Below are positions 12,565 to 64,000 of a stretch of DNA of 64,000 bases, piece by piece. Numbering within the stretch: position 1 is the first letter of the stretch; each line of letters begins with the position of its first letter. This DNA comes from Eubacteriales bacterium. GTDB lineage: Bacteria > Bacillota > Clostridia > Oscillospirales > CAG-272. Made by a program: the position numbers and the translations under genes. The notes under the pieces were generated by a model. It had not been told where the DNA came from. It made no database searches and was given only the letters and a program-made list of their open reading frames with translations. Where the stretch lies: the NCBI GenBank assembly GCA_045545665.1, contig JAZQBL010000013.1, forward strand, positions 81,504 through 145,503, given 5' to 3'.

Positions 12565-12676
12565 CAATTTATGTCCTGGTAGCTTAAGCAGAGCGTTGAT
12601 TTTCAAAGGTGGCGGTCTGAATCCGTCCGGGGGCAAAAAAAATATTTTTATCCAAATTAAAGCGAGGTAGCAAAAC

Positions 12677-12958
12677 ATGTACGAAGACAAGAAGTTGGTT
12701 TGTAAAGACTGTAACGAAGAATTCATCTTTACAGCAGGTGAGCAGGCTTTCTATGCAGAAAGAGGCTTCCAGAACGAACCCCAGAGATGCAAGAGTTGCC
12801 GTGATGCAAGAAAAAATGCAGGCAAGCCCCCCAGAGAATATCACACGGCTGTTTGCGCTAAGTGCGGCGGAGAAGCAAGAATTCCCTTCCAGCCCAGCAA
12901 CGACAGACCTGTATATTGCAGCGAATGTTTCGCAGCAATGAAGAACGCTGAAGAATAA
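12677..12958 (+). CDS. CxxC-x17-CxxC zinc-ribbon protein
   Basis: Two CxxC...CxxC units (CKDC...CKSC and CAKC...CSEC) with FTAGEQAFYAERGFQNEPQRC, a widely conserved small protein family. Confidence 0.8.
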   Translation: MYEDKKLVCKDCNEEFIFTAGEQAFYAERGFQNEPQRCKSCRDARKNAGKPPREYHTAVCAKCGGEARIPFQPSNDRPVYCSECFAAMKNAEE

Positions 12959-13014: not shown

Positions 13015-13054
13015 TCGGCAGAGATATTACATCTCTGCCGATTTGTGTTATAAT
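13015..13054 (+). promoter_or_regulatory. 11-bp-arm palindrome plus extended -10 (TGTTATAAT); copy of the RAYT-locus module
   Basis: tcggcagagat-attac-atctctgccga (13015-13041), then TGTTATAAT (13046-13054). 23 + 11 nt identical to 63068-63108 in reverse orientation. Confidence 0.55.
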
Positions 13055-13134: not shown

Positions 13135-13662
13135 ATGGGAAAAATTCTCGGTTCCTGGAGCGGAATGAGAAAATATCTTGAAGAAGATATGCTTGCACAG
13201 TCATTGCAAGGCAGAATAAGATACGGCTGTACTTCTTACACAGGAATGGATGGATGCCGTTTTTTTGAAGTATGTATTGATAAAAAGCAGGTAAAGCGTT
13301 TCTCCTGGGAGACCGTAAACACGTATTTTATCGACAACGGATACAAAAAAAATTCCTCTCCGTACGGCATAGGTGAGTATTGGGAAGGATTTCATTCTCT
13401 GCTGAAAAAATACCCCGTAAGCGAACGTACGGAATATACCGACGAAGAATTTTGCAACGCCTTGGAAACATACCGTAACCAAGATATTCAAGAAAGCATA
13501 TTTTCGGGCGATCCTATCGTCAGAATGTTTGCAATTCTTGACAGGAGAACAGGAAAAAGAACCCTGCAAAAATTACGACCTTCTATCGAAAACGGTCCCC
13601 AATGGCTGCGTCAATTTTACTTATTAAGATCAAACGCAGAAACCACCCCAGACAGACTTTGA
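13135..13662 (+). CDS. conserved hypothetical protein (SF0329-like family by recollection)
   Basis: 175 aa. FAILDRRTGKRTL and PQWLRQFYLLR resemble the uncharacterised SF0329 family. GGAG RBS. Confidence 0.65.
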   Translation: MGKILGSWSGMRKYLEEDMLAQSLQGRIRYGCTSYTGMDGCRFFEVCIDKKQVKRFSWETVNTYFIDNGYKKNSSPYGIGEYWEGFHSLLKKYPVSERTEYTDEEFCNALETYRNQDIQESIFSGDPIVRMFAILDRRTGKRTLQKLRPSIENGPQWLRQFYLLRSNAETTPDRL

Positions 13663-13719
13663 CTATCTGTTGGGGGTGTGATTTTTATTACAAAAAACTA
13701 CTTTTTATATCTCGTTTTC

Positions 13720-43946: not shown

Positions 43947-44456
43947 TTATTTTTTCTTCCATATTAGGTAAATACCTACAATCGCTCCAATAAAAGCAAC
44001 TGGAGATAACCTTACAAAAAACCACTCAAATGCATGAAGAAGAACTCCGACAACGGCTATTTCAGGGTCACTGTAGTCCCACGCTAAATATGGGCTACCA
44101 AAAATAATTAAGAGCATCCAAACCGCTATTATGGCAACTGCTAATAGGCTAAAGAACACTGTTAACTTTTTTCGCTTTGCGTTTCTACTCAGAGCAAGTT
44201 GCAAATTGATGATTTCCAATTTTTCAGAAATCACCTTTAAGTCATTTACTTCTGTCTGTTCAACAATTTCTCCAAGCAAAACACTTACAGGTGTGTCGAG
44301 TGCTTCTGATAAAGAAATCAACATATCAGAGTCTGGTACCGACAAGCCTTGCTCCCATTTTGAAATTGTTTGGCGAACCACATTTAACTTGACAGCAAGT
44401 TCTTCTTGGGATAATCCTTTTGATTTTCGGACTGCCCTTATGTTTTCACTCAACAT
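43947..44456 (-). CDS. XRE-family HTH regulator with C-terminal TM helices (AT-rich gene)
   Basis: NIRAVRKSKGLSQEELAVKLNVVRQTISKWEQG HTH, followed by three hydrophobic helices. Start at MLSENIR after AAGGAGG. Confidence 0.8.
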   Translation of the reverse strand: MLSENIRAVRKSKGLSQEELAVKLNVVRQTISKWEQGLSVPDSDMLISLSEALDTPVSVLLGEIVEQTEVNDLKVISEKLEIINLQLALSRNAKRKKLTVFFSLLAVAIIAVWMLLIIFGSPYLAWDYSDPEIAVVGVLLHAFEWFFVRLSPVAFIGAIVGIYLIWKKK

Positions 44457-44642
44457 GAGGAATACCTCCTTTCTTTTAGTAGTCACCTGTATTATATCAA
44501 AGTGTACCCGTTGCTACAAGCAACGGGTATTAACATTTAGGTTTGCAACTGAAATTAACAGACCATCAAATTCTTATTTATCGTTCTATTTATAGCCGGT
44601 TTAGCCTTTGTATTACAAAGACACGGGGCAAAGCCTGTATTT

Positions 44643-45141
44643 CTATTCTTCTGAGTATAGTTCATCATAGTACCAACGTATAGGATTTTCATATATGTAC
44701 TTCACGATCTCCTCATAGTCCTCTCGACCTCTGATAATATGATCGTGAAAGCCTCGTTGCCATACGTTTTCACCGTATTCTTTATTGCAAAATCTTTTAA
44801 ATGTCGATACAAAATGTGACACAAATGAGGTCTGTTTTGTAGGGGTCGACGTCCTCGGCGACCCGTCATCGCGAACGAATAACAAAAAATGTATATGGTT
44901 CGGCATAATAACGTATTGATCTACGGTTATATTTTAATAAAATTCATTCATTTGTTTTATATGTTTATCCGCAACGATTCCGTGCGGTAATAATTCCATG
45001 TTTTTCTACAATACGGGATAAGATCTGCCGCCTGCCTTCCGTACACAGCGTTATAAAATACGCTCCCGTTGTGTTATAATCAAAATTTTTTAACCTTGTA
45101 GGCTTCCTTTTCGGTAATTCTTTTTCTTTATCCACATTCAT
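44643..45141 (-). pseudogene. RAYT-type (REP-associated, IS200-like HUH/Y1) transposase, disrupted
   Basis: N-terminal part reads MNVDKEKELPKRKPTRLKNFDYNTTGAYFITLCT... The C-terminal part, in another frame, reads ...PHGIVADKHIKQMNEFY*NITVDQYVIMPNHIHFLL...VWQRGFHDHIIRGREDY...YIYENPIRW. Lesions: one frameshift (about 44965-45000) and an in-frame TAA at 44934-44936. Confidence 0.8.
44838..44864 (+). repeat. TGTAG + GC-rich hairpin (REP-like unit) inside the RAYT coding sequence
   Basis: tgtag-gggtcg-acgtcctcgg-cgaccc. Related units at 54196-54221 (opposite orientation) and 62176-62202. Confidence 0.6.
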
Positions 45142-45151
45142 CACCCGTTCT

Positions 45152-45192
45152 ATTGTATCAAAAATCGGCAGAGAAAACAAGTTCTCTGCCGA
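45152..45192 (-). promoter_or_regulatory. RAYT promoter: 11-bp-arm palindrome + extended -10
   Basis: tcggcagagaa-aacaag-ttctctgccga (45165-45192). On the minus strand it is followed by ttttTGATACAAT (45152-45160). Confidence 0.55.
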
Positions 45193-45253
45193 AATTTTAT
45201 GCCCCTGCCATTTCTTCTGTCGAGAATGCAGAAAGAATGAGCGGATTTTTTAT

Positions 45254-46126
45254 TTATTGCGTATTGTTGTTGGAAAATACGTCTGCCACTTCGCTTATCG
45301 TAATGTAGGCGTGGTGGTCGATATCGTGGACAAGCTCCTTCATTCTTACGACCTGGTAACGGTTGACGATAAAATATATCATCGTCTTATCTCTGTTTGA
45401 ATAACCGCCCTTTGCATTGAGGTACGTAACGCCGCTGCCGAAGGTTTCCGTCAGCTTTTCACAGACCTCTTTCGGTTTTTCGGTAATGATAATGGCGCAT
45501 TTTGCCCTGTCTATACCGTCAACGATAAAGTCAACGGCTTTAAGTGCCGCCGTATACGCAACGATCGAATAAAGCGGCAGCACCCAGCTTTTGAGTATAA
45601 TCCCGCAAGCTATGTAAAGCACCACGTTATATATCATAACGAACGTGCCGACCGTTATACCGAGTCTTTTTGCAAAGATTACCGCCATAACTTCAACACC
45701 GTCCATAGCGCCGCCGTAGCGTATTGCAAGACCGCTTCCGATACCCGATATCACACCGCCGAACAAGGCGCACAATAGCAGATCCTCGCCCGCAAACGGA
45801 GATGCAACGCTTACGTCAACGGGTAAAACGTCCGTGATGATCCACGATGAAATTGAGTAGATGAACACGGTATATATAGCGTACACCGTAAATTGCCATC
45901 CCTGTCTTTTAAGTCCGAACAAAAACAGAGGAATATTAAGCAGGATCAAAAATACGGAAAGTGTCAGATATTCGGGTGTCAGACGGTCCAAAAGCATAGA
46001 CGTACCTGAAATTCCGCTGTCGTACAAGTTTACCGGCATCAGAAATACCGTTATACCGAAGGCATTTACTATACCTGCAACTGTCAGCATCAAAATATTC
46101 GTAAGCTTCAACTTTCTTTCTCTCAC
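45254..46126 (-). CDS. YitT family membrane protein (DUF2179 C-terminal domain)
   Basis: 290 aa with 5-6 TM helices. C-terminal domain AIIITEKPKEVCEKL...GVTYLNAKGGYS is typical of YitT. Confidence 0.78.
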   Translation of the reverse strand: MRERKLKLTNILMLTVAGIVNAFGITVFLMPVNLYDSGISGTSMLLDRLTPEYLTLSVFLILLNIPLFLFGLKRQGWQFTVYAIYTVFIYSISSWIITDVLPVDVSVASPFAGEDLLLCALFGGVISGIGSGLAIRYGGAMDGVEVMAVIFAKRLGITVGTFVMIYNVVLYIACGIILKSWVLPLYSIVAYTAALKAVDFIVDGIDRAKCAIIITEKPKEVCEKLTETFGSGVTYLNAKGGYSNRDKTMIYFIVNRYQVVRMKELVHDIDHHAYITISEVADVFSNNNTQ

Positions 46127-48933: not shown

Positions 48934-49197
48934 ACAAAAAAATTCCTGTCCGAAATAGGACAAGAATGACTTCCTGCGGTACCACCTAAATTAACGAAAA
49001 AATTCGTTCCCTCTGCCGTACACCGTTATGTACGCACCCTTTTAACGGTAGGTTACCGTCAGCCATTACTCACGTTAGTTTTCCTGCTGCCCTCATAAGC
49101 CCATTCGTCAACCGTTTCGCTGCGGCATTTCACCACACTGCCGCTCTCTGAAAGCTACGCTGACTGACTACTATTCTTAATCAAAGGTTTCAACTAT
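48934..49197 (-). promoter_or_regulatory. T-box leader, probable Trp (UGG) specifier
   Basis: Minus strand has an AGAGA box, a distal-loop GUGUGGUGAAA, cgaaUGGgcuu (UGG at 49101-49103) and AAUUUAGGUGGUACCGCAGG (48973-48992). Terminator cuuguccu/ggacagga + U7. Confidence 0.85.
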
Positions 49198-50580: not shown

Positions 50581-50716
50581 CCCTTCTCTGCAGTTGTAAT
50601 GAATTTAAAACCGATCGGTGCATATTATCACGCACCGCACACAGGGCTTGCCCCGCCGAAACGAACACCACAGAATGCACATCATCGAAAAAACAAATCT
50701 GAATAACTTAAAACTA

Positions 50717-50750
50717 CCCCTGCAGATCAGAGATCTGCAGGGGTGGTTTT
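50717..50750. terminator. bidirectional terminator (rarA / small lipoprotein gene)
   Basis: Perfect 12-bp stem cccctgcagatc-aga-gatctgcagggg followed by tggtttt. Confidence 0.8.
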
Positions 50751-50754
50751 GAGT

Positions 50755-51039
50755 TTATCGCATTTCCTTGTCGAAAAAGTGACGTGCGTCGCTTATTGCA
50801 TCGGTGATTATTTCGGGAAGGCCGCCGCCTTCTCCGTCGTTTACCGTATCGCTTTCCTTCGTCGTTTCTTTTTCGGTAACTCTGTCGGTGACCTTCTCCG
50901 TCGCTTTGTCGGTAACTCTGTCGGTTACGGGTGTTGTTGCCGGTGCTTTCGTTGTCGTACTGTCTTTTTCGTCTTTTCCGCAGGCGCAGACCGAAAGCGA
51001 CACTGCGGCAGCGAGAAATATCAAATAAAGTTTTTTCAT
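50755..51039 (-). CDS. small lipoprotein with TD/TE-rich repeats
   Basis: 94 aa. Lipobox LSVCACG. Repeated VTDRVTDKATEKVTDRVTEKE encoded by a repeated tcggtaactctgtcggt DNA unit. Confidence 0.6.
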   Translation of the reverse strand: MKKLYLIFLAAAVSLSVCACGKDEKDSTTTKAPATTPVTDRVTDKATEKVTDRVTEKETTKESDTVNDGEGGGLPEIITDAISDARHFFDKEMR

Positions 51040-54195: not shown

Positions 54196-54221
54196 GGTCG
54201 CCGAGGGCGCCGACCACTACA
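54196..54221 (-). repeat. REP-like unit (TGTAG + hairpin, read on the minus strand)
   Basis: The plus strand reads ggtcg-ccgagggcgc-cgacc-actaca. Its reverse complement reads tgtagt-ggtcg...cgacc. Confidence 0.5.
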
Positions 54222-62119: not shown

Positions 62120-62175
62120 CAAGATAAAAAAGCAAGAATAAAGCGGACTTCTCATAAGGAAGTTTAATTTCTCCT

Positions 62176-62202
62176 TGTAGGGACAGGCGTCCTCGACTGT
62201 CC
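62176..62202 (+). repeat. REP-like unit (TGTAG + hairpin with a compensated stem)
   Basis: tgtag-ggacag-gcgtcctcga-ctgtcc. Same loop core and flanking TGTAG as 44838-44864, but a different, fully complementary stem. Confidence 0.55.
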
Positions 62203-62239
62203 GTTAAGATATATTTGCGCCGCAGAATACAAAGAGTAT

Positions 62240-62268
62240 CCCGGACAGATTTTCAAGGTCTGTCCGGG
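62240..62268. terminator. hairpin between the convergent MATE gene and the 62.3-kb gene
   Basis: Perfect 10-bp stem cccggacaga / tctgtccggg with a 9-nt loop. Weak T-tracts on both sides. Confidence 0.5.
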
Positions 62269-62300
62269 TTCTCATATCATTAAAAAGCCAAAACACGATA

Positions 62301-62909
62301 TCATTGGTTTGTGTTGATAATATTTGCAATCTCTGATATCAAATGTTCTTTTGAGGTCAACACGCCCTTAACTGCAAATTTCTTTTTGTTAATTATTACA
62401 ATAGTGCAATTCGTCTGAAATTTTAATACAATTCTTTTGGTTTTGTTTCTGCAAACGGCTCGAAATTTTCCATAAAACTTTCCACCGCCTATAAAAATGT
62501 ACCCCGTTACTTCTTTCTTTGTATAACGGGTTAACTGATCGAAAAATTCAGCATAACTACCAAGGAATATATCATGTAATACAGAACAATATACGCTATT
62601 TTTGCAGTAGGTCAAATAGAGAAATTCAATCTTTAAAATAGAGAAATCTGTGATATATGATTGTAACAAAAAGCAAAGGATTGCAATTGGTATAGCAACC
62701 CATAATTCACGTTCAAAGCACATGGGAATCCAACATAACAACAAAATCAAATACTGGAATATAATAAATATTTTGCGTCCAAACTTTGATGTAAGACCTT
62801 GTCCTTTGCGCCACGCTTCTTCACGTTCTTTTTTGCCCCAAATTATCTTGTCAGAAAAAAAGCGATTTGTTCTATTATAGTATTCGATATAAAAATCTTT
62901 TCTTTGCAT
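62301..62909 (-). CDS. hypothetical membrane protein, AT-rich orphan gene
   Basis: 202 aa. AGGAGGA RBS. Two TM helices (IFIIFQYLILLLCWIPMCF and WVAIPIAILCFLLQSYI). No family recognised. Sits directly downstream of the gene-less RAYT-element derivative. Confidence 0.5.
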   Translation of the reverse strand: MQRKDFYIEYYNRTNRFFSDKIIWGKKEREEAWRKGQGLTSKFGRKIFIIFQYLILLLCWIPMCFERELWVAIPIAILCFLLQSYITDFSILKIEFLYLTYCKNSVYCSVLHDIFLGSYAEFFDQLTRYTKKEVTGYIFIGGGKFYGKFRAVCRNKTKRIVLKFQTNCTIVIINKKKFAVKGVLTSKEHLISEIANIINTNQ

Positions 62910-62968
62910 TTTGCAACTATCCTCCTACTGTGTGATGTCTACACTTGGAATTTAATCGCGCAAGTTTC

Positions 62969-63149
62969 GCCTTTGTATTACAAAGGCATAGAGCAAAGCC
63001 CATGCCCCTAAAGCTGTACGAACGCTTCAATAGGCTCCCTCCGGGAGGGAGGCTTTTCGTTAGCCTCATTATAACACAAATCGGCAGAGAAAACAAGTTC
63101 TCTGCCGAAGCTTTCGTGCTACTAATTCTCCGCTAAGAATGCAGAGAAA
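62969..63149 (-). mobile_element. gene-less (MITE-like) derivative of the RAYT element
   Basis: Left block 62969-63000 matches 44604-44635 at 28 of 32 positions. 63078-63109 is identical to 45162-45193 (32 nt). An AGAATGCAGA block lies at both right ends. There is no transposase ORF between the ends. Confidence 0.55.
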
Positions 63150-63207
63150 AAAGGAAAAACTTTTATTCTTGCTTTTTGTTTCAACGCAGCCGTACGGTTG
63201 CGTTTTT

Positions 63208-64000
63208 TTATACTTTTACTATTCCGAATGCTTCCAGAACGGAGAAGATGAGTATGAAAACGATGCAAACGGGTGCTATATATTTTATAACTACCGTAAA
63301 GAGCTTGCGTGCTTTGAATGCTCCGCCGATCTCCGCTTCCTCGATTATTGCCTTAGGCTTGATGACGTAACCGATGAATATACACGTTGCAAGTGCAACT
63401 ATCGGCATAAGAACACTGTTGCTTGCAAAATCAAATAACGTGAGGAAATCCATTCCGATAAGCTTTATTCCGCTCCATATACCGTTACCGAGCGAGGACG
63501 GAACGCCGAACACGATGCATATGCCCAAAACGATGAAGCAAGCCGTTTTTCTCTTTATACCGAATTTATCGGTGAATATCGAAACAACCGTTTCCATAAG
63601 AGAAATCGAGGACGTAAGTGCGGCAAAAAGTACGAGCAGGAAGAAGGCAACGCCGATCATCTCGCCGCCCTTCATTGAGTCAAACACCTTCGGGAGCGTT
63701 ACGAACATAAGTCCGCGACCTTTGTTAAGCGCCTCGGCACTGCCGCCCGAAAAAGCAAATACACCGGGAACTATCATAAGTCCCGCAAGAAATGCTATGC
63801 CTGTGTCAAATATCTCTATCTGTCTTACGGATGATTCGATATTGACGTCCTTTTTCATATACGAGCCGTACGTTATCATAATGCCCATTGCAAGTGACAT
63901 CGAATAGAACAGCTGTCCCATTGCGGCAAGCACCGTGATTATTGAAAACTGTGAAAAGTCGGGCTTTATGTAGTAGATAACGCCTTCCCAAGCGCCGTCC
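63208..64000 (-). CDS. sodium-dependent transporter, NSS (SNF) family; N-terminal part outside the window
   Basis: The frame stays open to the window edge upstream of the track's Met (DGAWEGVIYYIKPDFSQFSIITVLAAMGQLFYSMSLAMGIMITYGSY, an NSS signature). Confidence 0.85.
   Translation of the reverse strand, partial: DGAWEGVIYYIKPDFSQFSIITVLAAMGQLFYSMSLAMGIMITYGSYMKKDVNIESSVRQIEIFDTGIAFLAGLMIVPGVFAFSGGSAEALNKGRGLMFVTLPKVFDSMKGGEMIGVAFFLLVLFAALTSSISLMETVVSIFTDKFGIKRKTACFIVLGICIVFGVPSSLGNGIWSGIKLIGMDFLTLFDFASNSVLMPIVALATCIFIGYVIKPKAIIEEAEIGGAFKARKLFTVVIKYIAPVCIVFILIFSVLEAFGIVKV

Follow-up and report, generated by a model that had tools for sequence, protein, structure and literature searches.

It is known that the left end of the insertion sequence (IS) IS200 carries a bidirectional terminator at nt 12-34, which shields the element from impinging transcription, with the tnpA start near nt 40 (PMC4513863). 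Insertion sequences, above all those of IS200/IS605, have more terminator-like sequences directly upstream than expected (PMC13548323). Putative mobile promoters were catalogued by Matus-Garcia et al. (2012) as highly similar regions of 50-100 nt upstream of non-homologous genes, within and between genomes (PMC3488235). Here we analyse a palindrome joined to an extended -10 promoter, which occurs three times in 64,000 nt of a contig from an Eubacteriales bacterium (JAZQBL010000013.1 of assembly GCA_045545665.1; this whole stretch is called the window below). The module is best read, with a probability of about 0.72, as a combined transcription stop and start signal that would head a widespread family of small cassettes in uncultured gut Clostridia. 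At least one such cassette lies inside what is predicted to be a split terminator hairpin. Like the left end of IS200, the module has a perfect hairpin terminator and then a transcript start within a few nt, which is here predicted. Unlike IS200, the same head also precedes unrelated accessory genes and gene-less units. The catalogue of mobile promoters is general and gives no mechanism, while here the promoter appears to be fused to a terminator, with a defined cassette frame and insertion site.

The three copies lie at 13015-13054 on the plus strand and at 45192-45152 and 63108-63068 on the minus strand (sites 1, 2 and 3), with the coordinates and sequences that an earlier note, made from the letters of the window, had given them. 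They share exactly one layout, TCGGCAGAGA-loop-TCTCTGCCGA and then TTTnTGnTAyAAT (Table 1), and the -10 hexamers are TATAAT, TACAAT and TATAAT, respectively. At site 1 a -35-like ATTACA is found in the loop (13026-13031), 17 nt upstream of TATAAT, and the promoter scan gives a match of 10/12 with TG. Other promoters in the window read TTGACA-17-TRTGnTATAAT, so the -10 of the module is typical for this organism. Might the three copies be a chance recurrence? The window has no exact 10-nt arm beyond these six, arm matches with at most one mismatch were in none of 100 shuffles of the window as numerous as observed, and the calculated number of chance matches to the 20-nt specified palindrome in 64 kb is about 3.5e-7. 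Each hairpin has an 11-bp stem with 6 G-C pairs and a folding energy of -20 to -22 kcal/mol (z -5.8 to -7.0). A simple terminator scan flagged both strands at sites 1 and 2 and the minus strand alone at site 3. The three copies in 64 kb are 18-32 kb apart; those at 13 and 63 kb have exactly the 23-nt identity noticed earlier, and sites 2 and 3 are alike over 47 nt at 89% identity. The genes named downstream were also correct, i.e., a gene of the SF0329 family, a broken Y1 gene of the type called REP-associated tyrosine transposase (RAYT, where REP stands for repetitive extragenic palindrome), and an open reading frame (ORF) of 202 aa. Upstream of the palindromes, the genes are co-directional in all three cases and stop 57 nt (zinc-ribbon gene), 62 nt (YitT-family gene) and 100 nt (SNF-type transporter gene) before them, and the remark that the palindrome sits where the terminator of the upstream gene is expected thus extends from site 1 to all three.

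How far does the module reach beyond this contig? A scan of genomes for the motif and its downstream genes, which had been proposed as a check, was made with the bare palindrome on one genome per species, and gave at least 116 loci (L numbers below). At least 111 of them, from at least about 94 species-level metagenome-assembled genomes (MAGs), belong to gut MAGs of Clostridia, Oscillospiraceae or 'Eubacteriales', whose hosts include ruminants and humans, and there a polarised module stands before diverse genes. The five matches outside Clostridia (Sphingobium, Acidobacteriota, Ktedonobacteraceae, Thermomicrobiales and Nitrospinales) miss every other feature, and their number is in line with the estimate of about 3 by chance. 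Four matches on viral contigs (L159-L162) represent one related phage region with TCGGCAGAGA-AAAG-TCTCTGCCGA, a 4-nt loop, no -10 and no flanking features, which is probably an unrelated terminator, and a link to phage was dropped. Degenerate copies were looked for by a fuzzy search of about 750 kb of loci with at most 2 mismatches per arm, which found unrelated hairpins only. Among the matches listed, the T-tract and a -10-like hexamer stand on one side alone in 96 of 119 palindrome copies. Metagenomes were scanned with TATAAT and the start of the leader as anchor, leaving the palindrome unconstrained; the palindrome was nevertheless present in 28 of the 29 distinct sequences.

Conservation in 121 distinct copies follows the parts of a promoter as well as those of a hairpin. 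The -10 hexamer is TATAAT in 109 copies and is preceded by TG in 107; TTGTTT stands exactly 17 nt upstream of it, in the hairpin loop, in 101; and the right arm ends 7 nt before it in 115. The loop has 8 nt in 111 copies and ranges from 6 to 12 nt. Its length changes on the 5' side alone, while the distance from TTGTTT to TATAAT is constant. Free variation is confined to the two bases at the start of the loop, 5' of TTGTTT, which serve neither the terminator nor the promoter role. Directly 3' of the stem is TTTGTGTT or TTTTTGAT, and 5' of it are A-tracts of the type CACAAAAATT, in the whole family. Among unbiased copies the pairing of the arms is kept in 98.8% of cells, the left arm varying slightly more than the right one. 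Between the window copies at 13 and 63 kb, the innermost pair is flipped in a compensatory way, as the earlier note had seen; little weight can be put on it, since in the family this position is the loop's first base, at which all four nucleotides occur opposite a T that does not change.

What would such a module do? The palindrome had been supposed to overlap the -35 position; the comparative data bear out an overlap with the -35 and spacer of an extended -10 promoter, and among an operator, a hairpin and a terminator-promoter cassette they favour the last. Read as RNA, the 11-bp hairpin between an A-tract and UUUGUGUU would be a bidirectional intrinsic terminator that stops transcription of neighbouring genes. 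Read as DNA, the loop would give the -35 TTGTTT, the right arm would be the 17-nt spacer, and the T-tract would run into TRTGnTATAAT, so that sigma-A RNA polymerase would start about 7 nt downstream of the -10, irrespective of upstream sequence. The palindrome and the TGnTATAAT box would make one compact insulated promoter, and a cassette with its own terminator and promoter could be expressed independently of its landing place. The features of an intrinsic terminator are present, namely a G+C-containing stem-loop, a 3' U-rich tract, a 5' A-tract and a co-directional gene upstream. In every case seen the module is oriented towards box3, the segment that closes the leader, and the gene.

Could the dyad be an operator instead? 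A dimeric regulator on two 10-bp half-sites over the -35 and spacer would repress all cassettes as a regulon, and it would be suited by the perfect dyad symmetry over the promoter, by the high conservation of both arms in many species, and by the same site ahead of unrelated genes. However, the spacing of the half-sites is not fixed: indels on the 5' side give loops of 6, 7, 8, 9 and 12 nt, while the promoter distance stays, and half-site centres about 18 bp apart would lie on different faces of the helix. In addition, where arms vary, either both sides change together (A-T to G-C in L158; two pairs altered on both sides in L144, which also has one U·G) or a G·U pair appears (L126 and L157), and both wobble variants pair solely on the sense strand, the one reading towards the promoter. 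Such variants fit a folded strand and not a protein reading the duplex. The unequal conservation of the two arms also speaks against an operator, as do the promoter-less copies in L178 and L103, which would remain as plain terminators, and no consistently linked regulator gene was found among the neighbours examined. The variable half-site spacing and the wobble on the sense strand only therefore point to a folded strand, and an operator is very improbable.

The stop and start signal stands at the head of a longer frame. Cassettes are 0.7-1.5 kb in length with conserved 5' and 3' ends, and comparison gives the layout as a 5' hairpin (H1) or an alternative end, the palindrome with its putative promoter, a structured leader ending in box3, a small accessory gene, a conserved terminator (T3) and inverted end motifs. 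H1 is the upstream hairpin of TTCTCTGCATTCTTAGCGGAGAA type at sites 2 and 3, and its two family variants have compensatory differences in the stem; the alternative 5' end sometimes has a GTAG-type REP. After TATAAT there are four recurrent continuations: (a) a leader that begins with CTAACGAAAAGCCTCCCTCC… and has nested palindromic blocks, (b) GGGTGATGAAAATGGATAA…, the start of a Y1/RAYT-type transposase gene (Pfam Y1_Tnp), (c) a DUF559 nuclease gene, and (d) a doublet of GTAG-type REPs. The unit usually closes with box3 (consensus …GGCTTTGC.C…TTTGTAATACAAAGGC.AAAC) where the locus is long enough to show it. Box3 never occurs by itself: each of its 45 copies has a palindrome 120-650 nt upstream on the same strand. 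In most box3 units a ribosome-binding site and a small ORF on the same strand follow within about 16-80 nt. The cargo is diverse, including SF0329, DMP19-like, GNAT, DUF7660, DUF4304, DUF3795, HAD, P-loop kinase-like and DUF5104 proteins, helix-turn-helix (HTH) proteins as in L041 and L091, and many orphans. After the cargo gene, many loci have the T3 terminator, CCCCGACAGA-loop-TCTGTCGGGG with a T-rich tail. The cassette ends carry a subterminal inverted repeat of 11-14 nt, TTCTTAGCGGAGAA / TTCTCCGCTAAGAA, while the outermost bases are not inverted repeats; other cassettes have an alternative pair of ends (…CTTCTCATAAGGATGTTTACAAATT and its inverse). Oppositely oriented GTAG REPs often accompany the ends. 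An 8-kb locus contains a single unit, and every unit has a promoter of its own. Genome pairs, and also L032 and L048 of one MAG, have common blocks of 550-850 nt that start 30-45 nt upstream of the palindrome. As an alternative to movement of whole units, cargo might be exchanged by homologous exchange between the conserved modules of the frame.

The leader from TATAAT to box3 is rich in conserved hairpins and stands ahead of many unrelated genes. Is it a structured non-coding RNA, or a riboswitch-like cis-regulatory leader of which the palindrome is one helix? The compensatory variants of H1 would agree with this. No Rfam family was matched by the leader or module at the gathering threshold, and E values up to 10 gave only noise, which tells against it. 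Nor is the leader indispensable: it is missing at site 1, can be replaced by protein genes, and tolerates nested inserts of at least 100 nt. The palindrome lies upstream of the predicted start and hence would be outside that RNA. This explanation is the most improbable one considered here. A related candidate, that the leader (ATAAT … box3) is a separate IS608-like miniature element, was suggested by the distances of 19 nt and 10 nt from the hairpin feet, and was rejected because TATAAT is also present without the leader (site 1, DUF559 and RAYT units). In other genomes, palindromic inserts of about 100-250 nt are nested in the leader hairpin GCCTCCCTCC/GGAGGGAGCC (window 63020-63067 compared with L092 3360-3466); they are several alternative blocks, some of which are seen as spurious small ORFs, and the window has the insert-free minimal version.

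Where do the cassettes lie? The clearest answer comes from site 3, for which both a filled and an empty state were found. In L168, whose MATE protein is 97% identical to that of the window, the MATE and SNF genes converge on an 82-nt spacer with an intact hairpin, AAAAAGCAAGAATAAAAG-GGAAAAA-CTTTTATTCTTGCTTTTT. In the window, a cassette of 1010 bp is inserted between the left stem and the loop of this host hairpin. The junction is ambiguous by 1-4 nt, with a possible target duplication of 3-4 nt (AAAG), and no fixed target motif was seen at junctions. The same cassette is found elsewhere: window 62211-63147 matches L092 in two consecutive pieces, one of 832 nt (97.5% identity) and one of 103 nt (89%), with about 99% identity in the cargo gene and unrelated flanks on both sides. 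L092 differs by an additional palindromic insert of about 100 nt nested in its leader, and the 3' end motifs of site 3 recur in L119 and L133. A third state of the locus is seen in L169 (4153-4304; MATE protein 89% identical), where the MATE/SNF spacer has only the 3' cassette motifs, i.e., T3, the inverted REP and the alternative end, with no palindrome and no gene. Just past the stop of the SNF gene, a second terminator-like hairpin (AACGCAGCCGTACGGTTGCGTT and T7; window 63183-63204) in plus-strand orientation is conserved in L168.

Is site 3 a single case? In many loci, the reverse complement of the 14 nt directly before H1 is found again 600-1500 nt downstream. A bracketing inverted partner of at least 11 nt was found for 29 of 53 testable units, compared with 6 of 53 in a direct-repeat control. 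Most of these inverted flanks are locus-specific and have the form of A-tract and stem … stem and T-tract, that is, of a split intrinsic terminator. This suggests that other cassettes are also placed within host terminator hairpins.

Several points weigh against the stop and start signal heading cassettes, and they should be noticed together. A terminator alone would not require arms as strictly conserved as these: of 28 unbiased distinct copies, only about 4 show variation with pairing retained. Slow change is expected for a stem in which each single mutation is harmful, and an additional sequence-specific reader of the arms may exist. The -35 is weak (TTGTTT has 3 of 6 matches), and the U-tract is broken by a G. 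It is known that an extended -10 can compensate for a weak -35. In L023 and L077 the loop is inverted (AAACAAGT) and the -35 thus lost, with the -10 still present; there the palindrome appears flipped, and the -10 follows as usual. In L010 the palindrome lies within an inverted 3' end, where it may have a second role in recombination. No recognisable split hairpin was found around sites 1 and 2, and the clean filled/empty pair is only one, at site 3. Around site 1, the only candidate was a low-complexity 11-nt match about 1.9 kb away, which was taken as chance; at site 2 there is no inverted partner, and the site ends in an ordinary bidirectional terminator. Finally, the sequences used for comparison come mostly from MAGs or metagenome contigs, in which repeats are easily misassembled, and L178, used below, is a metagenome contig of 1.7x coverage.

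The copy in L010 also raises the question whether the palindrome is first of all a signal for recombination or transposition, a hairpin of single-stranded DNA read by a RAYT/IS200-like Y1 enzyme or another recombinase, with its terminator and promoter roles secondary. This would be compatible with a stop and start signal. RAYT genes stand directly behind the module at no fewer than 13 loci and in the window, the RAYT unit of about 690 bp has hairpins at both ends like IS200 (707 bp; PMC4513863), and gene-less units with the same ends resemble miniature derivatives. The near-invariance of the arms over at least about 94 species would fit too, and in L010, L103 and L178, which are gene-less or promoter-less, divergence sets in exactly 8 nt past the hairpin foot. 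A single-stranded hairpin apex would suit insertion by an enzyme of the HUH type. On the other hand, the palindrome is perfect, has no GTAG and is preceded by AAATT, while true GTAG palindromes occur elsewhere in the units. For the E. coli TnpA-REP, both GTAG and a mismatch in the stem are required, and a palindrome that has been made perfect is not bound (PMC3333891). Moreover, the 3' hairpins of box3 are unlike the palindrome, in contrast to the ends of IS200/IS605, and REP types vary between RAYT alleles while the palindrome is constant. The RAYT gene of L163 has neither palindrome nor box3, so that a strict linkage of RAYT and palindrome fails. For the P0079 RAYT, the same neighbour genes are found in all four contigs shown of 23 carriers, which suggests vertical inheritance as a single copy. 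We regard a primary recombination signal as unlikely.

Returning to the stop and start signal, what could move the units that it heads? A RAYT transposase is a plausible mover, and it is the obvious candidate because it occupies the leader slot of some units, because the gene-less units look like its miniatures, and because REPs stand at the ends. The intact protein of L061 matches Y1_Tnp (PF01797) with 26.4 bits against a cut-off of 23, which applies to RAYT-carrying units only. We hold it possible, with the odds somewhat against it, that the units are an undescribed class of mobile cassettes that integrate at the apexes of intrinsic terminators and are moved in trans by a RAYT-like HUH transposase or by the DUF559 nuclease, each with a kit of terminator, promoter, leader and terminator. 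The DUF559 gene (Vsr-like endonuclease fold) is seen in the RAYT slot between promoter and box3 in L032, L035, L048, L077, L085, L094, L057 and L111; the units of L032 and L048 are 97% identical and come from separate contigs of one MAG.

RAYT genes of this clade (L061; L164, 1501-2016; L163, 1501-2085; L179, 3404-3970) contain two in-frame GTAG-type REPs in opposite orientation, for example GTAGGGGTCGACGTCCTCGGCGACCC … GGGTCGCCGAGGACGTCGACCCCTAC, and the type of REP differs between RAYT alleles. In L163 the first REP segment is tandemly duplicated, and the RAYT copy of the window has lost its first in-frame REP exactly after GTAG. A GTAG-type REP-like sequence, GTAGTGGTCGGCGCCCTCGGCGACC, also lies at 54196-54221 of the window on the minus strand, 88% complementary to the REP in the RAYT pseudogene.

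With the frame, the cargo and the insertion site in hand, the comparison with known systems can be extended. In contrast to IS200/IS605, whose two ends are alike, the present units have box3 hairpins that resemble neither the palindrome nor H1 in sequence or form. Further differences from IS200 are that the enzyme is RAYT-like and apparently single-copy, and that its unit stands within a larger cassette, which at site 3 splits a host hairpin. A RAYT-type Y1 gene, GTAG palindromes in both orientations, and mosaic repeats near terminators are shared with the systems of REPs, bacterial interspersed mosaic elements (BIMEs) and REP doublets forming hairpins (REPINs) with their RAYT (PMC3333891, PMC3116915, PMC5581495). 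In contrast to REP and REPIN, the palindrome here has neither GTAG nor a stem mismatch, is linked to a promoter and has a fixed polarity to the downstream gene, the units carry cargo genes, and REPs are in-frame inside the RAYT coding sequence. Intergenic stem-loops are used as safe sites by IS1397/ISKpn1 and IS621 (into REPs; PMC1525189) and by group IIC introns (after terminators; PMC8643678). Those hairpin-targeting elements encode DDE/DEDD transposases or a reverse transcriptase, while a mobility gene is absent from most cassettes here, and the one at site 3 splits the host terminator itself.

Integron cassettes are alike in their small diverse accessory genes (GNAT, DUF-type, immunity-like), in the folded structure at the boundary, and in presence or absence between close strains. 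They differ from the present units, each of which would have its own promoter and terminator; attC core sites, arrays and an integrase were not seen here, and the insertion at site 3 is at the hairpin apex and not at the stem base. The Correia repeat enclosed elements (CREE) of Neisseria and the BOX elements of pneumococcus are small, modular repeats between genes, through which the neighbouring genes acquire promoters, terminators or processing sites. BOX has conserved end modules and variable internal modules, as in boxA … box3 here, and Correia elements have true terminal inverted repeats and target-site duplications. Correia and BOX elements are not known to carry genes or to lie in terminator loops. 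Each ingredient of the present units has a precedent. The combination, a kit before single accessory genes, with a terminator of its own and inside split host terminators, is apparently undescribed; full-text literature searches found no prior description of the element or of this combination, which is absence of evidence only.

What would follow if this scenario holds? In uncultured gut Clostridia, small accessory genes (immunity-like, GNAT, HAD, DUF) would be shuffled and expressed from cassettes that encode no recombinase, each gene bringing along its insulated promoter and its terminator, and landing in a terminator hairpin need not disrupt the neighbouring genes. RAYT-type transposases, whose role outside Proteobacteria is obscure, would have a testable job. 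If the cassettes are indeed mobilised in trans, they would be functional counterparts of integron cassettes that bring their own promoters, and would represent the first RAYT-type system to carry genes as cargo. In practice, the module offers a sharply defined tag of about 40 nt by which cassettes can be found in metagenomes, and it predicts a transcription start and stop for each copy. As a compact terminator-promoter of about 45 nt, it could also serve as an insulated expression part for Clostridia.

Table 1. Features of the three sites in the window (positions in the window; strand as read by the module, "." for either)
Feature	Position	Strand	Description
Upstream zinc-ribbon gene, site 1	12677..12958	+	93 aa; Pfam zf_Tbcl; its transcript would be stopped by the palindrome
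Palindrome, copy 1	13015..13041	+	TCGGCAGAGAT-ATTAC-ATCTCTGCCGA; 11-bp stem, 5-nt loop; RNA fold -21.7 kcal/mol, z -7.0
T-tract and extended -10, site 1	13042..13054	+	TTTGTGTTATAAT; TTTG then TGTTATAAT, ending at 13054
Cargo gene, site 1	13135..13662	+	SF0329 family, 175 aa; Pfam PF25753, 1.7e-38
T3-like terminator, site 1	13647..13675	+	CCCAGACAGA-loop-TCTGTTGGGG, then T-run
Upstream YitT-family gene, site 2	45254-46126	-	co-directional
H1-like 5' hairpin, site 2	45212..45237	-	TTCTTTCTGCATTCTCGACAGAAGAA
Palindrome, copy 2	45165..45192	-	TCGGCAGAGAA-CTTGTT-TTCTCTGCCGA
T-tract and extended -10, site 2	45152..45164	-	TTTTTGATACAAT; TTTT then TGATACAAT, ending at 45152; loop TTGTTT 17 nt upstream
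Broken RAYT/IS200-like Y1 transposase gene, site 2	44643..45138	-	in leader slot; frame interrupted; 80% nt identity to L061
box3, site 2	44599..44635	-	…GGCTTTGCCCCGTGTCTTTGTAATACAAAGGCTAAAC
HTH (XRE-type) gene, site 2	43947..44486	-	behind RAYT slot, predicted to be co-transcribed; assigned by sequence motif
Whole cassette, site 3	62143..63152	-	1010 bp; absent from the empty site of L168
Host bidirectional terminator, loop and stem half	63153..63177	.	loop GGAAAAA and CTTTTATTCTTGCTTTTT; adjoins SNF transporter gene; stem half is 63160-63177
H1 hairpin, 5' end of cassette, site 3	63126..63152	-	TTTTTTCTCTGCATTCTTAGCGGAGAA
Palindrome, copy 3	63081..63108	-	TCGGCAGAGAA-CTTGTT-TTCTCTGCCGA, as in copy 2
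T-tract and extended -10, site 3	63068..63080	-	TTTGTGTTATAAT; TTTG then TGTTATAAT, ending at 63068
Structured leader, site 3	62910..63067	-	minimal version; boxA hairpin 63035-63051, box3 62964-63000
Cargo gene, site 3	62301..62909	-	202-aa membrane-type orphan; no Pfam match
Terminator T3, site 3	62240..62268	-	CCCGGACAGA-loop-TCTGTCCGGG
3' end motifs, site 3	62146..62202	-	inverted GTAG-type REP (62177-62202) and inverse of the alternative 5' end (…CTTCCTTATGAGAAG)
Host bidirectional terminator, stem half	62126..62142	.	AAAAAAGCAAGAATAAA; adjoins MATE gene stop

Note that the three sites do not use the frame in the same way. Site 1 has a degenerate alternative 5' end, AATAAAGATGTTTACAAAAT, and an 80-nt leader without boxA or box3. 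Its SF0329 gene is present in 5 contigs with an identical zinc-ribbon protein and the same layout, and is absent in one, L178. In that contig the palindrome and TTTGTGTT are kept after the zinc-ribbon gene, and the segment from ATAAT through the 5' part of T3 is missing. Since the palindrome is kept there without a -10, the hairpin would persist as the terminator of the upstream gene without a promoter. A homologue of the SF0329 gene stands behind a full unit in L070, and a gene-less frame is seen in L103, which consists of H1, the palindrome, TTTGTATT, 16 nt and T3. At site 2, L179 has the same flanks with a different central segment, and its RAYT is called full-length with 188 aa, on a contig that contains a run of N. 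The SNF-type transporter gene, the co-directional upstream neighbour of site 3, ends at 63208.

There are a few further observations in the window. At 50695-50765 there is an inverted repeat with 34-nt arms, whose core CCCCTGCAGATC…GATCTGCAGGGG resembles T3. In the spacer before the zinc-ribbon gene (12573-12635, plus strand), a borderline Rfam match to tRNA scores 30 bits against a cut-off of 29, and ARAGORN gave no confirmation of it. Finally, a T-box leader (Rfam RF00230, 129 bits) lies at 48953-49193 on the minus strand.

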